Assembly (NCBI GenBank): GCA_030583785.1
Contig: CP129475.1
Span: 614,535 to 678,534 of the forward strand
Direction of reading: 5' to 3'
Source of the DNA: Candidatus Dojkabacteria bacterium
Lineage (GTDB): Bacteria > Patescibacteriota > Dojkabacteria > B142 > OLB20
Length of the DNA stretch: 64,000 bases
Part shown: one piece after another, positions 7,204 through 28,121 of the stretch
Numbering within the stretch: position 1 is the first letter of the stretch
Layout: every line of letters starts with the position of its first letter
The notes under the pieces: generated by a model
Database searches by the model: none
Told to the model about the DNA's origin: nothing
Seen by the model: the letters and a program-made list of their open reading frames with translations, nothing else
Program-made: the position numbers and the translations under genes

Positions 7204-7333
7204 GCCACAGGCCACAACTCGGGGTAGAACTCGAACTTCGCTATGCTCGTTCTCGCTAACTCCCGGTTTGTCGAACCCATGGGTTCTCTCTCATACAATC
7301 TCCACGCTGCCCACCACTTCGTGATGGTCACCG

Positions 7334-7785
7334 TGGAGATGGCGGGAATCGAACCCGCGTCCAGAAAATCGTGCATCTATGTTCTACAAGCTTAGCAGAT
7401 TTATTTCAGACGATTGGTAATAGAAACCTGCAAAAACCACCAATCGACTGCATGCATCTTCTTCGCTGTGCAAAGCATACAAGTCTGCACAGTCTGCATC
7501 CTGACTGTGTTTCTCCTTTAGTATCCCATCAGGAAAAGATAACTAAAGAAGGCTTCTAACCGCGAGCTAGGCTCGAGCGGTCTTAGGCAGCTAAGTTGAG
7601 CTGGAAGCCGAAGAAAGAGTTAACTTTCTCAGCAACTGCATCAAAAAAGCTTTGTGCTTTGTTTTCGACGATTATTTTTGTCTTCCCAGTGAGTTCTGGG
7701 AGTGTCGGTTTAGTTACAAAGATACCGAACAAAACTTTGGCTTGCCATAAACACACTATATTCTCTGTCAAAACCGGTCATCCCC
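7334..7785 (-). ncRNA. ssrA: tmRNA (ssrA)
   Basis: Minus-strand 5' end GGGGATGACCGGTTTTGACAGAG, with a G3.U wobble in the acceptor stem. 3' tRNA-like end GGACGCGGGTTCGATTCCCGCCATCTCCA (T-arm plus acceptor, CCA not encoded). Internal tag reading frame ...AEKVNSFFGFQLNLAA-TAA ends in the canonical LAA-stop. Confidence 0.8.
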
Positions 7786-15089: not shown

Positions 15090-15574
15090 AGATGATTATT
15101 ATTGTCTACATAATTAATACACTTTTAGTCTTAACAATTTCTTAACTTGTCCACAATTAGGGATGATTGATTGAATATCTTGTTACAAAACAAAAGAAAA
15201 CAAGACAGAAACAGCTTTTTTCACCACTACCTTTCCTCTACCAATCGATCTCGTTGCCAGACAATAATTTTCGGTTGATTCTTGCACTTGAGCCGACCGA
15301 ACAGATACCGATACCTGCAAGTTCGTACATTAATTCTCTATAAGCATGAAATAGAATTGTCGAGTGGACCCTGTATTAAAAACCCAAAGAAAATACTAAT
15401 CGTAACCACAATTACCTACCCTCCCTCAGCTTACAACAAACTTCTTAACTTCTCATGAATAATTGATTTTTACATTAAATAATTAGAAAGCTAAGTTTGT
15501 TCAACTATTATATTCAATAATTGCTTATCGATCATTTCTTTGTTAGAATTAATCTCAAATCAAATAACAATGCG

Positions 15575-15770
15575 TTGAACCGACCTAGTCATCGGGGAGC
15601 AAAGGAAAGAACATCAGTTTTTCTGACTAGTAGACTCCTTCGGGTAGGCCCGAAATAGCCGCAAGAGATGCCCGAAAAGGCATGGATCAGGGTGGAACCT
15701 CCTTATATATCGAAGGACCCTATCCGACAATCGCAGCTGTAATGCGGTTGGCGGATAGGGTTTTTTGTAT
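15575..15770 (+). promoter_or_regulatory. T-box-like leader riboswitch upstream of valS
   Basis: Conserved T-box-like sequence ATCAGGGTGGAACCTCC (cf. AGGGUGGNACCGCG) at ~15692-15708, directly 5' of an intrinsic terminator. Possible Stem-I elements: GTTGA k-turn-like motif, a GTCA loop (Val codon GUC plus purine), and AGAGA. Confidence 0.5.
15721..15766 (+). terminator. rho-independent terminator / T-box terminator hairpin
   Basis: ccctatccg...cggataggg perfect 9-bp stem followed by tttttt. Confidence 0.65.
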
Positions 15771-15785
15771 CTTATAAACATATAT

Positions 15786-18665
15786 ATGCTAACCAAGGGA
15801 CCATACGAAGCAACAATAACAGAGGAATCAATATTAAATTATTGGCTCGAAAATAAATTTTTTAAACCGGAATATCATCCAGAAAAGGGGCTACAGACCG
15901 AGGCAGAAATGCGTGCCGACCAGAGAGATCCTTTCACTATCGTTAATCCCCCACCGAACGCATATATGCGACCACATATCGGGAATGTTTCCGGATATGC
16001 ATACCAAGATGTTTTACTTCGTTACAACAGATTACTTGGTAAGAAAGTACTGGGACAACCCGGAAAAGACCACGCAGGCATACAAGGCGAGGTGGTAGTA
16101 GAAAAGATATTTCTAGAAAATAAAAAAAAGAGCAAACAAGATCTAGGACGCGAAAAATTCTACAAAGCATCGTATGCGCATTTTCAAAAACTTATGCCCA
16201 TGGTTATGGCCGACGAAAAAAGGATTGGTTTGTCAAGCGACTACGAGCGCAACCTATTTACACTTGACCCAAGAGTCGTAAATACGATTTTGAACACCTT
16301 TGTTTCTCTATATTCAGACGGAATGGTATATAAGGGCGTTCGCATCGTAAATTGGGATCCTGTTGCCAAGACCACCCTTGCAGATATCGATACCGAAAGA
16401 GTCGAAAGGGAAACGGAACTTGTTTATATTAAATACCCGCTAAAGCAAGAAATTGATGGAATAAATCATATTACAGTTGCCACAACTCGAGCAGAGACAA
16501 TGCTGGGAGATACCGCCGTTATTGTTAACCCTAAAGACGAGAGGTACAAAAAACTTATTGGAGCGATAGTGGTGCTTCCACTTGCTAATAGAGAAATCCC
16601 AATCATTACCTCTGAAAGGGTTGAGAGTGAATTTGGAACTGGAGCAGTCAAACTTACTCCGGCACATTCATACGACGATTATGTCATGATGAACGAATGG
16701 AACTCTGTTGCCAAGGAAAACGAAAAGATCGGATATATCAATGTAATTAATAAGCAGGCCAAGATGTACGGCCCAATCCCCGAAAGATACATTGGACTTA
16801 GCACCGAAGAAGCTAGAAGCAAAGTACTTGTTGACCTCGAAGAACAGGGACTCATCGAAAAGAAAGAGGCTCACACACAAAGTGTAATGGTCGGAGAAAG
16901 ATCGAAAGCTGTCATCGAACAGATAATGTCTTCACAGTGGTTCATTGATGTGGAAAGGCTTAAACAGCCGGCAATCGAGGCTGTAAAATCAGGAGAAATC
17001 CAGATCCATCCAAAATACATGACAAAAAAATACTTAACCTGGATGGAAAACCTTCATGACTGGCCAGTCTCAAGGTCTCTATGGTGGGGATACCGAATTC
17101 CTGTTTGGTACAAAGGTGAGCTTAGTGAAGATATTGACGAAAAAGGTCAGGTGATAGAGACAGTTGGAGGAGAGAAAGTCGAAAATATTAACGATGCAGT
17201 CAATAAAGGACTTGCCAAGATTCAACTTGATCCACCGGGAACAACATTTGCAGTTATTCGACATGGAGCGACAGAGCATAATCAGGAGCACAGATTAACA
17301 GGCAGAATCGACACCCCCTTAAGTGAATCAGGAATTAAAGAATGTGAGATTTATGCAAATAATCTGCAAGAATCCTTTGATTTGATAATCTCTTCGCCAC
17401 AAAAAAGGGCTTTTCAAACCGCAGAAATCATTGCTGCTAAACAAAACAGCAAACCAAACATAATTACCGACGAAAGACTTAGAGAAAGAGACTTTGGTAT
17501 CGCCGAGGGCAAAAACTGGGAAGAACTAATTACAGAAAATCCTGAACTGGCAAAAAGCAACTCTCCTCTCTTTCAACCCGAACTTCCTGAGGCAGAAACA
17601 ATTACAGAAGTTGAAAGCCGTGTTGAAGATTGGATCAAAGAAACCGCCGAAAAATATACAGGAAAGAAAATTCTTGTCGTAACACATGCGGGCGTGTACC
17701 GAGTAATTAGAAGACAACTTGGAGGAATGAATGCAGACGAATCCAGAACCGATATTGCCAACCTGCAAATGGAGAGGTATCACATTAAAGAGGAGGGCTG
17801 GATTCAAGATGAAGATGTGTTTGATACCTGGTTTAGTTCTGGACAATGGCCGTATGCCACGCTAAGAGCAAACAACATCAATGACTGCTTCTTTCCATCT
17901 GATGTTATGGAGACAGGACACGATATCCTTGAACTATGGGTAAGTCGAATGATCATGCTCTCGTTATACACAGAAAACAAGATTCCTTTCAAACATGTTT
18001 ATTTACATGGTCTGGTTAAAGCTCCCGACGGGCAAAAGATGAGTAAATCTAAAGGGAATGTCATTGCTCCGGAAGAAATCATTACCAAATACGGAGCTGA
18101 TTCACTAAGACTACTTTATGTAGTTGGGAATCGAGCCGGTTCAAGTTATCCTGTGAGCTACGAAAAACTTGAAGGATACAAAAGATTTCTTAACAAAATC
18201 TGGAATGCAGCGAAATTCGTTCTTTCAAATCTTGAAGATTTAAACATTGATCATCTTGCAAATACCGATATAAAGAATCTTAACCTTGCCGAGACCGATA
18301 GAACTATGCTCGATCATATGAACCTTTTAATCGCAGACACCACGCGTAGATTGGATAACTTTAATCTAGGCATTGCTGCGCAAGAGTTATACGATTCATT
18401 CTGGCATACTTTTGCGGATATCTATTTAGAAGAAGTAAAAATGCGCTTGTATACAAAAGATAAGGACGGCAACCCTATAAATACTTCTGAGCAAGAAAAA
18501 CAAAGCAGATTTGCAGCACAGTGGACTCTGTACAACTGCTTTAGAGAGTATCTAATTCTATTGCACCCATTTATTCCGTTTATAAGCGAACGGATTTGGC
18601 AAGATCTACCGAAAACAGACAAAGAAAGTAAAACAATTATGTATTCTCGCTGGCCCCAGCGTTAG
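15786..18665 (+). CDS. valS: valyl-tRNA synthetase with an inserted histidine-phosphatase-superfamily domain
   Basis: ValRS blocks: PPPNAYMRPHIGN (HIGH-region variant), GKDHAGIQ, VNWDPVAKTTLADIDTE, WPVSRSLWWGYRIPVWY, DTWFSSGQWP, KMSKSKGN. An insert at ~17110-17810 carries the RHG phosphatase signature (IRHGATEHN ... LVVTHAGVYR). The ATG at 15786 was chosen because the longer ORF start overlaps the leader terminator. Confidence 0.9.
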   Translation: MLTKGPYEATITEESILNYWLENKFFKPEYHPEKGLQTEAEMRADQRDPFTIVNPPPNAYMRPHIGNVSGYAYQDVLLRYNRLLGKKVLGQPGKDHAGIQGEVVVEKIFLENKKKSKQDLGREKFYKASYAHFQKLMPMVMADEKRIGLSSDYERNLFTLDPRVVNTILNTFVSLYSDGMVYKGVRIVNWDPVAKTTLADIDTERVERETELVYIKYPLKQEIDGINHITVATTRAETMLGDTAVIVNPKDERYKKLIGAIVVLPLANREIPIITSERVESEFGTGAVKLTPAHSYDDYVMMNEWNSVAKENEKIGYINVINKQAKMYGPIPERYIGLSTEEARSKVLVDLEEQGLIEKKEAHTQSVMVGERSKAVIEQIMSSQWFIDVERLKQPAIEAVKSGEIQIHPKYMTKKYLTWMENLHDWPVSRSLWWGYRIPVWYKGELSEDIDEKGQVIETVGGEKVENINDAVNKGLAKIQLDPPGTTFAVIRHGATEHNQEHRLTGRIDTPLSESGIKECEIYANNLQESFDLIISSPQKRAFQTAEIIAAKQNSKPNIITDERLRERDFGIAEGKNWEELITENPELAKSNSPLFQPELPEAETITEVESRVEDWIKETAEKYTGKKILVVTHAGVYRVIRRQLGGMNADESRTDIANLQMERYHIKEEGWIQDEDVFDTWFSSGQWPYATLRANNINDCFFPSDVMETGHDILELWVSRMIMLSLYTENKIPFKHVYLHGLVKAPDGQKMSKSKGNVIAPEEIITKYGADSLRLLYVVGNRAGSSYPVSYEKLEGYKRFLNKIWNAAKFVLSNLEDLNIDHLANTDIKNLNLAETDRTMLDHMNLLIADTTRRLDNFNLGIAAQELYDSFWHTFADIYLEEVKMRLYTKDKDGNPINTSEQEKQSRFAAQWTLYNCFREYLILLHPFIPFISERIWQDLPKTDKESKTIMYSRWPQR

Positions 18666-19830
18666 GAATGACTATTTCAAAGGTTGTATCGTATTTGCTA
18701 GCTTGAAAATCTGGCTCAACCTCCAAATCCTCGACAACAACCTGCCCATCTTCACCTAATGTAACTTTAACGGTGTACTTTCCGTCGCCATCTGTAGAAG
18801 AAACACGCACACTACCACCTGCTGTGGATGCATTATGAAGTAGAAGATTTAAGCCCAGGCCAGTACTGCCTCTGCCCGAATTGCCCTCCTCGAAGCGACT
18901 TTGAACTTTGTCTCTTTCCATACCCTTGGCTGTATCTGAAACCGAGTAAACAATATCATCACCAACATTATTTACAGCAACTTTAATACTCTTATCTAGA
19001 ATAATGCCATCTCCTTCTCTTTTCTTAAACATTTTCTGAGCATTGTTCACCAATTCTAGAATATCTAGGATGCGAAGAAAACTTTCTTCTCTTGGCATTT
19101 CACCTGTTTCTATATAATTGATGGTTCCATCTGACTGCTTCATTTTTCCATAACCATCAATTATCCTTTTTAGTTGCTCAAAAGGTACTTGCGGATCGTG
19201 GTCTCTTTTATCTCCGCCCCAAGCCAAAGACAGAAATTCTGTTATCCGAAGAAATGCTGCGAAATTTTTTGAAAATTTTGAAAGTGTATCATCAGTATCG
19301 TATTCTGTTGGAACCTCTAGCATTGTTAGGGGAACAGCCAGAACAGAATATAAGTTACCTAAGGTATGCTGAACTTCTTTAGACTCTTCACTATCAGAGG
19401 AAATTAACGAAGAATCTCTGGTAACAGGTAATTCACTAAACAAGATGTCATACGGCTTAGGACTAATTTTAAACCTTCTACCATTAATTTCCGTTTCGTT
19501 ATCCAGCCCAAGTGATTCAATATATGCCTCGACAGTTTCTTTTCCTTTTTCATCTCTAAAGTAAGAGACAAAAGTGCCTAAACCCTTAATTAACCTAGTA
19601 GTGACTATTGGATCGCCTTCGTATTCAACAACTTTTATTGTACCGTTATATTCGAATCTAATAATACTGGTATTCGGGTCATAACTTATGCCTAATATTT
19701 TACCCTCCTCTAGCATTATCCCGGAAAAATTCTCTATCTGCTCGTTCATTCTTTCGTTTGCAATCTCAAAAGGGGTTCTATTATCTGTCTCAGAAGTATT
19801 CTGACTTATGATGTCTTGCGAAGTAGTCAT
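18637..19830 (-). CDS. protein with C-terminal histidine-kinase-like ATPase (GHKL/HATPase_c) domain, no TM helices and no recognisable HisKA
   Basis: C-terminus DTAKGMERDKV...GNSGRGSTGLGLNL (N/G1/G2 boxes of the Bergerat fold). N-terminal ~280 aa unrecognised. 397 aa. Confidence 0.5.
   Translation of the reverse strand: MTTSQDIISQNTSETDNRTPFEIANERMNEQIENFSGIMLEEGKILGISYDPNTSIIRFEYNGTIKVVEYEGDPIVTTRLIKGLGTFVSYFRDEKGKETVEAYIESLGLDNETEINGRRFKISPKPYDILFSELPVTRDSSLISSDSEESKEVQHTLGNLYSVLAVPLTMLEVPTEYDTDDTLSKFSKNFAAFLRITEFLSLAWGGDKRDHDPQVPFEQLKRIIDGYGKMKQSDGTINYIETGEMPREESFLRILDILELVNNAQKMFKKREGDGIILDKSIKVAVNNVGDDIVYSVSDTAKGMERDKVQSRFEEGNSGRGSTGLGLNLLLHNASTAGGSVRVSSTDGDGKYTVKVTLGEDGQVVVEDLEVEPDFQASKYDTTFEIVIPNAGASENT

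Positions 19831-28029: not shown

Positions 28030-28121
<92 letters not shown>

Follow-up and report, generated by a model that had tools for sequence, protein, structure and literature searches.

A histidine phosphatase domain nested in the CP3 subdomain of a Dojkabacteria valyl-tRNA synthetase

Results and discussion

The valS gene of a Candidatus Dojkabacteria bacterium (WS6, Patescibacteria; assembly GCA_030583785.1) encodes a valyl-tRNA synthetase (ValRS) which carries a complete histidine phosphatase domain of 184 amino acids (aa) within its CP3 subdomain, and which is, judged from its sequence, a bifunctional polypeptide with the catalytic residues of both enzymes intact. The gene is located in a 64,000 nucleotide (nt) stretch of contig CP129475.1 (positions 614,535 to 678,534), here called the window, and all coordinates given below are those of the window. 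Syntenic relatives without the insert mostly have the same phosphatase as a separate gene just downstream of valS, and on balance we lean towards the domain being an autonomous small-molecule phosphomonoesterase, normally a neighbour of valS, which has been relocated into a permissive CP3 loop of a working ValRS.

The reading frame and its valyl-tRNA synthetase host

The valS open reading frame (ORF) runs without interruption on the + strand through to position 18665, starting either from ATG at 15786 (959 aa) or, in its longest form, from TTG at 15765 (the 966-aa reading). All motifs quoted in the original prediction, which had proposed from this DNA that a catalytically competent histidine phosphatase module is inserted in frame in ValRS, were found in frame within this ORF. 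At least four independent sequencing runs gave the identical 959-aa protein, on at least 10 contigs and with its neighbours unchanged, and a 99%-identical GenBank/UniRef protein from WS6/Dojkabacteria OLB21 is labelled just "Valine--tRNA ligase"; an assembly chimera or a pair of frameshift-joined genes is thus ruled out, as far as assemblies show. The G+C content is flat across the insert with no anomaly, its borders show no terminal repeats (just chance-level 9-19-mers), the window protein has no Hint or intein match in Pfam, and the end of the insert (...HIKE/EGW) is without the His-Asn plus Cys/Ser/Thr of a splice junction, which also rules out an origin as a mobile element or intein. With dozens of orthologous nested proteins in addition, the explanation that the insert is an artefact, be it a chimeric assembly, a frameshift-joined gene pair or an intein-like element that is spliced out to give the mature protein, is effectively refuted.

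By its profile matches and motifs, the host is a bona fide class Ia ValRS. The Pfam tRNA-synt_1 domain (E=2.2e-104) is split in two around the insert and followed by a C-terminal Anticodon_1 domain, and the window protein scores above the cut-offs of the NCBIfam valS equivalog NF004349 (752.3 bits vs 704) and of TIGR00422 (709.7 bits vs 612.1). The alignment with Thermus thermophilus ValRS (1GAX) falls into two halves, with query residues 53–450 matching 32–417 and residues 681–964 matching 448–706, and because of this about 230 extra aa can be seen to stand in place of the Zn knuckle of about 30 aa, which matches the sizes given originally. The class I signature is present as the HIGH variant H-I-G-N (15975–15986, + strand), and in an alignment of 109 Dojkabacteria-type ValRSs H64 and G66 are invariant, with N67 conserved in at least 90% of the sequences. 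The replacement of the last His of HIGH by Asn is seen in the window and in essentially all 109 of these enzymes. The motifs of the CP1 editing domain (ATTRAET and GTGAVKLTPAH...D; 16479–16667, + strand) occupy columns which are invariant or nearly so in relatives with and without the insert alike, the ValRS synthetic motifs are also invariant regardless of the presence of the insert, and the query could be aligned with the editing domain of 1WKA (E=6e-22).

Pfam and structure-sequence alignments assign the rest of ValRS (17793–18662, + strand) to the end of CP3 (EGWIQDEDVFDTWFSSGQWP), the second Rossmann half, with the KMSKS motif at 18036–18050 (+ strand), and the anticodon-binding domain, and the C-terminus is without a coiled coil. 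The AlphaFold2 (AF2) model of the whole protein has a mean predicted local distance difference test score (pLDDT) of 93.9 and a predicted template modelling score (pTM) of 0.87, with no disorder in the linkers, and its best PDB match in Foldseek is 1GAX_A (E=1.2e-52, target-normalised template modelling score (TM) 0.73). From its sequence, the ValRS part is complete and predicted to be editing-competent.

The insert is positioned at the tip of CP3

The boundaries of the insert follow from relatives which lack it. In insert-free close relatives the corresponding module is unbroken (...NDAVxKGLAKVQLxSPG-EGWIQDEDVFDTWF), and the basal state among the relatives is a constant 50 aa from WWGYRIPVWY to DVFDTWF. 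The inserted His_Phos_1 (branch 1) domain (TTFAVIRHG...ERYHIKE; residues 486–669, 17241–17792, + strand) fits exactly between ...DPPG and EGWIQD..., giving the junctions PPG/TTF and IKE/EGW, and is joined to CP3 with essentially no linkers. It is preceded by the N-terminal part of a native non-zinc CP3 mini-module (KGELSEDIDEKGQVIETVGG...LAKIQLDPPG; 17112–17240, + strand), which was recognised from the insert-free relatives and from an alignment with Candida isoleucyl-tRNA synthetase (IleRS, 6LDK), where the sequence following the insert aligns starting at residue 523. CP3 of the Candida enzyme comprises residues 473–534, and is described as a peripheral subdomain with a species-variable topology, which binds zinc in Thermus only (PMC7191050); the alignment combined with this description places the host site at the tip of the variable CP3 subdomain. 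The span first proposed for the phosphatase, 17110–17810, does contain the insert at 17241–17792, but also takes in the native CP3 segment at 17112–17240.

The nested domain is a branch-1 histidine phosphatase

By its score, catalytic residues and predicted fold the insert is a branch-1 histidine phosphatase. Pfam His_Phos_1 (PF00300) matches residues 497–679 of the 966-aa reading with an E-value of 1.8e-43 and 148.9 bits (gathering cut-off 21.7), spanning profile positions 3–186 of 194. When compared with 175 free and 62 nested homologues, residues R492, H493, N499, R541, E567 and H634 match invariant columns, and the R-H-N-R-E-H catalytic set is retained in 59–62 of the 62 nested copies, as it is in the free-standing homologues. 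Taken separately (all + strand), the RHG motif with R492, the phospho-acceptor H493 and G494 (17259–17267) has its Arg kept in 59/62 and its His in 60/62 nested copies, the remainder being gaps or one degenerate copy; the second phosphate-binding arginine R541 in SSPQKR (17406–17408) is Arg in 61/62 nested and 175/175 free copies; the putative proton donor E567 in RERDFG (17484–17486) is Glu in 60 nested copies and Asp in two; and the second catalytic histidine H634 in VVTHAG (17685–17687) is His in all 62. Identity to the window among relatives is 36–50% for the insert and 47–74% for the host core, and because the catalytic residues were kept while the rest of the insert diverged, the active site appears to be under selection.

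A single relative clearly departs from this pattern: in P0137 the nested His_Phos (residues ~648–834) has lost its catalytic residues (RHG changed to CYD and the second Arg to Pro), and is still located in ValRS, making this copy a possible pseudo-enzyme.

The AF2 model of the insert alone is also of high confidence (pLDDT 93.6, pTM 0.90), and Foldseek matched it to the PspA phosphoserine phosphatase 4IJ6 (TM 0.88, root mean square deviation (rmsd) 2.1 Å). Its fold neighbours PspA, PhoE, the riboflavin-pathway HFP and CobC are all small-molecule phosphomonoesterases. The insert scored below the NCBIfam cut-offs for the CobC alpha-ribazole phosphatase (TIGR03162; 124–128 bits vs 162.9), dPGM (TIGR01258; 50–57 vs 81.7, with the match limited to the first ~100 profile positions), the SixA phosphohistidine phosphatase (TIGR00249; 29 vs 74.5), PspA (75 vs 350) and PhoE-like proteins (68 vs 277), and because every equivalog cut-off was missed, a substrate cannot be transferred from CobC, PspA, PhoE or the others. 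Additional family-specific conserved arginines (R83, R154, R158 and R169 of the insert) are common to the nested and the valS-adjacent forms. From the insert model and knowledge of the fold, the two connections of the insert to CP3 would be formed by the N-terminal end of strand 1 and by the last strand, and because both are at the opposite edge of the sheet, the RHG pocket probably faces away from the attachment.

The catalytically competent module that had been proposed is therefore supported by the Pfam architecture, with tRNA-synt_1 split around His_Phos_1, by the catalytic columns, with the RHG histidine on an invariant one, by the independent assemblies and by both AF2 models. The accompanying suggestion of an aminoacyl-adenylate as substrate found no support, as the nearest fold relatives are small-metabolite phosphomonoesterases, and mixed anhydrides are not among the substrates known for the histidine phosphatase superfamily. 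A moonlighting role, also considered at that time, is better supported, because relatives encode this phosphatase in a gene of its own beside that of ValRS.

In most syntenic insert-free relatives the phosphatase gene is a neighbour of valS

The free proteins closest to the insert (P0231 and the P0222 cluster) come from contigs which also carry an insert-free Dojkabacteria valS. The window and these relatives share the gene order Pribosyltran - valS - variable slot - tatD - metG, and in four of the five syntenic insert-free loci (L091, L093, L094 and L095) the slot holds a His_Phos gene of 184–192 aa on the valS strand, which in L094 has a 4-nt overlap with the valS stop codon. The slot is without a His_Phos gene in all three insert-bearing loci (the window, L096 and L097), and no second His_Phos was found elsewhere in the 64-kb window. 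A neighbour-joining (NJ) tree, calculated without bootstraps, had the valS-adjacent free genes fall within the nested-domain clade, and because of this placement and the family-specific residues that they have in common, the nested domain and the valS-adjacent gene are, as far as their sequences indicate, one orthologous family in two arrangements. Synteny differs in L099, which comes from a more distant genome.

In the window, the slot between valS and tatD-metG (18637–19830, − strand) is filled by a convergent gene encoding a 397-aa HATPase_c protein (histidine-kinase-like ATPase) with no further recognisable domain, and the 3' ends of this gene and valS overlap by 29 nt (18637–18665). A related HATPase_c gene fills the same slot in the OLB20-like locus L098. 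An ORF of ~160 aa precedes the free phosphatase gene in L091 and L095, and was considered as the free counterpart of the Ser_hydrolase domains found in other ValRSs (see below), but it encodes a hydrophobic membrane protein which resembles no insert.

The association with valS does not extend to free homologues throughout the candidate phyla radiation (CPR). In Nomurabacteria the neighbours of the free His_Phos gene are HD, HAD, Peptidase_S51 and Mur-ligase genes, and in another lineage they are trpBA and NUDIX, which rules out that free CPR homologues are generally located beside valS or ileS. In the Nomurabacteria loci L005–L007 (around P0013), the free gene is part of a run of small hydrolases (YfbR-like HD nucleotidase, HAD and Peptidase_S51) located upstream of the Mur ligases, and this context hints at a nucleotide or house-cleaning role for the family outside Dojkabacteria.

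Nested enzymes recur at two sites in class Ia synthetases

Nested His_Phos_1 domains are present in 30 of the 120 closest ValRSs. Long homologues were mapped onto a compact 774-aa Dojkabacteria ValRS to place their inserts, and this gave two insertion hot-spots, site B in CP3 and site A at the entry to CP1. Site B is occupied by either His_Phos, Ser_hydrolase, two Ser_hydrolases, Ser_hydrolase plus His_Phos, GNAT, or GNAT plus His_Phos, a load of up to ~370 aa and two enzymes. The Ser_hydrolase at this site is PF06821. P0162, P0120, P0108, P0171 and P0196 are examples of relatives with such site B contents, and these ValRSs are up to 1477 aa long. Site A holds a ~120-aa module without Pfam match, HAD plus that module, a Ham1p-like (ITPase) domain, or, in P0233, His_Phos. 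It is the counterpart of window positions 16430–16480 at the start of CP1, and examples are P0121 (residues 220–340), P0104, P0106, P0159 and P0195; in the window ValRS site A is empty.

We expanded the search to 1.84 billion representative sequences and a scan of GTDB species genomes, the latter with a five-sequence alignment of the domain. Nested His_Phos domains were found in ValRS of Falkowbacteria, Komeilibacteria, Saccharibacteria and Sungbacteria, and in IleRS of Saccharibacteria, Paceibacterota, Peribacteria and other Patescibacteria, sometimes as two copies, and they always split PF00133 at profile position ~265–288 (277 in the window). The homologues returned from non-CPR genomes were free-standing. 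Nearest-neighbour analysis placed the Dojkabacteria nested copies in one group; the copies in IleRS and in other CPR are probably independent captures, because they sit closest to free phosphatases. On the core-ValRS NJ tree, which was constructed without support values, insert-bearing and insert-free enzymes are interleaved, and therefore the insert state would have changed repeatedly or been exchanged. The catalytic domains of aminoacyl-tRNA synthetases (aaRS) are known as favoured hosts for insertions (PMC13114784), and CP3 is a natural hot-spot and permissive site for domain insertion.

Four matches carried a gammaproteobacterial label. A 2-kb contig (L019) has a ValRS-type ORF with a nested His_Phos and is probably mis-binned CPR DNA, and in three loci from metagenome-assembled genomes (L031, L056 and L061) His_Phos forms the C-terminal part of ~600-aa proteins whose N-terminal part has no identified domain.

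Origin and possible role of the nested phosphatase

The explanation that we favour, with modest confidence, is the relocation of an autonomous phosphomonoesterase from its place next to valS into the permissive CP3 loop. A phosphatase gene of ~186 aa, which usually follows valS directly on the same strand and in some cases overlaps the stop codon of valS, would have moved into valS in the lineage of the window, with the downstream copy gone. The ValRS would aminoacylate and edit normally, and the insert would have as its substrate a small metabolite carrying a phosphate, similar to a nucleotide, a sugar or a phospho-amino acid, and proceed via a phospho-His493 intermediate, with E567 as proton donor. 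The phosphatase would be produced 1:1 with ValRS, and the nesting would lock the co-expression of a long-standing partner gene of valS without adding a step to aminoacylation. The small-metabolite structural relatives, the presence of unrelated enzymes at the same sites, the patchy distribution and the tolerance for insertions known for CP3 and for aaRS catalytic domains all support this explanation.

Several points weigh against this explanation. The proposed substrate and activity are read from sequence and fold, and as the NJ trees lack bootstraps, a change from gene to insert or from insert to gene would both fit. The syntenic locus L098 has neither a nested nor an adjacent His_Phos within 10 kb, which weakens strict complementarity: the alternation between nested and adjacent forms is not absolute. 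Finally, the same CP3 site took up His_Phos independently in ValRS or IleRS of Falkowbacteria, Komeilibacteria, Saccharibacteria, Paceibacterota and Peribacteria, and such independent captures together with the adjacency to valS are a classic signature of partnership, which means that the phosphatase may serve class Ia synthetases specifically.

The main alternative, somewhat unlikely in our view, is a phosphatase functionally coupled to the synthetase, and acting on something that ValRS and IleRS handle. Its substrate could be a tRNA end with a 3'-phosphate or 2',3'-cyclic phosphate, a phosphorylated near-cognate amino acid or a nucleotide product, with the phosphatase brought beside it by the nesting, or by a complex with the product of the adjacent gene. 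That ValRS and IleRS from several CPR classes independently captured the domain at the same CP3 point would agree with such coupling, as would the conserved valS adjacency of the free gene, including the 4-nt overlap, the rigid, linker-less attachment in a model of high confidence and the conservation in nested and adjacent forms of arginines beyond the catalytic set (R83, R154, R158 and R169). It is less easily reconciled with the closest structures, which are small-metabolite phosphatases rather than nucleic-acid enzymes, with the patchy distribution among close relatives, one of which has neither form nearby, and with the occurrence of Ser_hydrolase, GNAT, HAD and Ham1 domains at the same sites. 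The free homologues in other CPR which are not beside valS or ileS, and the likely attachment at the sheet edge opposite the RHG pocket, argue in the same direction.

We are more doubtful about a general accessory layer of the CPR class Ia synthetases ValRS and IleRS, in which a histidine phosphatase cooperates with the synthetase, whether as a domain nested in CP3 or as a docked protein encoded by the adjacent gene. The task of such a layer might be to repair tRNA 3' ends that carry a phosphate, or to remove a phosphorylated near-cognate or antimetabolite, and the other nested hydrolase and GNAT modules could then be variations on one theme. If true, it would add a new class to the quality-control or repair activities associated with aaRS.

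Two further explanations are improbable. The first is that the nested hydrolases and transferases form a detoxification or immunity layer against antimetabolites which mimic aminoacyl-adenylates, or against damaged nucleotides, which target class Ia synthetases. Both hot-spots indeed hold only small-molecule hydrolases plus an acetyltransferase, an IleRS with a GNAT domain is already recognised by NCBIfam (NF040702), and GNAT and serine-hydrolase enzymes (MccE and MccF) are a known immunity route against processed microcin C. The proposal would be purely by analogy, as no toxin, transporter or immunity genes were present in the examined loci, and we know of no histidine phosphatase activity on sulfamoyl or phosphoramidate adenylates. 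The second, to which we give equally little weight, is that the insert is a neutral passenger, or a pseudo-enzyme with a structural or regulatory role, derived from a fusion accident in a permissive loop and with catalysis irrelevant; the insert does evolve faster than its host, its distribution is patchy, and the P0137 copy is degenerate, but catalytic sets intact in 59–62 of 62 copies despite more than 50% divergence are unexpected without selection for catalysis.

The nested and adjacent arrangements form a natural Rosetta-stone pair, and suggest that in these organisms, which have minimal genomes, a phosphatase and the class Ia synthetases may be linked; should the two be unconnected, the arrangements represent a clean natural example of a neighbour gene turning into a nested domain at a permissive loop. 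The wild type, the precise deletion and the H493A variant are all defined by natural sequences, making the arrangement directly testable, and CP3 and the CP1 entry are natural domain-insertion sites which could be of use in protein engineering.

Other features of the window

Upstream of valS there is a gap of ~700 nt (15090–15785) with a low G+C content (0.33–0.38) and no ORF of at least 60 aa. No credible Rfam match, promoter or terminator signal above background was found in this gap, and a leader RNA was rejected on these grounds. The only structured RNAs found in the window are a tmRNA gene (7333–7785, − strand), with an unusually long predicted tag peptide (VENKAQSFFDAVAEKVNSFFGFQLNLAA), and tRNA-Ser(GCT) (28030–28121, − strand).

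Comparison with known systems

The aaRS belong to the most thoroughly studied enzymes, and each type of accessory domain, be it editing, tRNA-binding or appended in eukaryotes, has given rise to its own field of biology. Insertions into synthetase catalytic domains are recognised as frequent (PMC13114784). Nested accessory enzymes are already known, among them the CP1 editing domains, INS of prolyl-tRNA synthetase and the GNAT domain of the ileS_w_GNAT model. A histidine phosphatase within ValRS or IleRS was not described in any paper that we found in the full-text literature, most subscription journals being outside its coverage, there is no NCBIfam-type model or name for a ValRS or IleRS containing His_Phos, and the nested proteins are entered in the databases simply as "valine--tRNA ligase" or "class I tRNA ligase family protein". 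The nested phosphatase, the repertoire of the hot-spots and the alternation between nested and adjacent forms thus appear undescribed, although the single protein was already deposited. The window protein is not unique: the arrangement is common in Dojkabacteria and recurrent in ValRS and IleRS of other CPR.

The fold of the insert is that of PspA/iPSP1 (4IJ5/4IJ6), PhoE (1H2E), HFP (9MMH) and CobC (6NRU/6E4B), with TM 0.85–0.88 and rmsd 2.1–2.7 Å. Like the insert, these compact branch-1 phosphatases have the R-H-N...R...E...H arrangement in ~180–200 aa and no dPGM C-terminal tail, but they are free-standing and have defined small substrates, whereas the window domain is nested in a synthetase. 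On the side of the host, the CP3 Zn knuckle of Thermus ValRS and IleRS has the same position in the chain as CP3 of the window protein, between the WWGxRIPxWY strand and the DTWFSS helix, but the known CP3 variants are structural elements of 30–60 aa, whereas the window CP3 contains a whole enzyme of 184 aa.

Three known systems come close to the arrangement as such. In the Mycobacterium tuberculosis Rv2228c-type RNase H/CobC-like acid phosphatase (NF005567) a branch-1 phosphatase is also fused to a nucleic-acid-processing enzyme, and the NF005567 model matches the insert with an E-value of 6.5e-27, with a score (95) far below the cut-off of 326; there the fusion is end-to-end and with another partner enzyme, whereas the window domain is nested. 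The ileS_w_GNAT family (NF040702) is, like the window protein, a class Ia synthetase with an extra catalytic domain, differing in both the inserted family and the host, and Dojkabacteria relatives of the window ValRS carry GNAT at the same CP3 site. The INS editing domain of bacterial prolyl-tRNA synthetase and the free YbaK/ProXp proteins provide a parallel for an accessory domain which, depending on the lineage, is nested within the synthetase or encoded by a gene of its own. As an aminoacyl-tRNA deacylase, INS/YbaK clearly contributes to the work of the synthetase, whereas we know of no role of a histidine phosphatase in aminoacylation.

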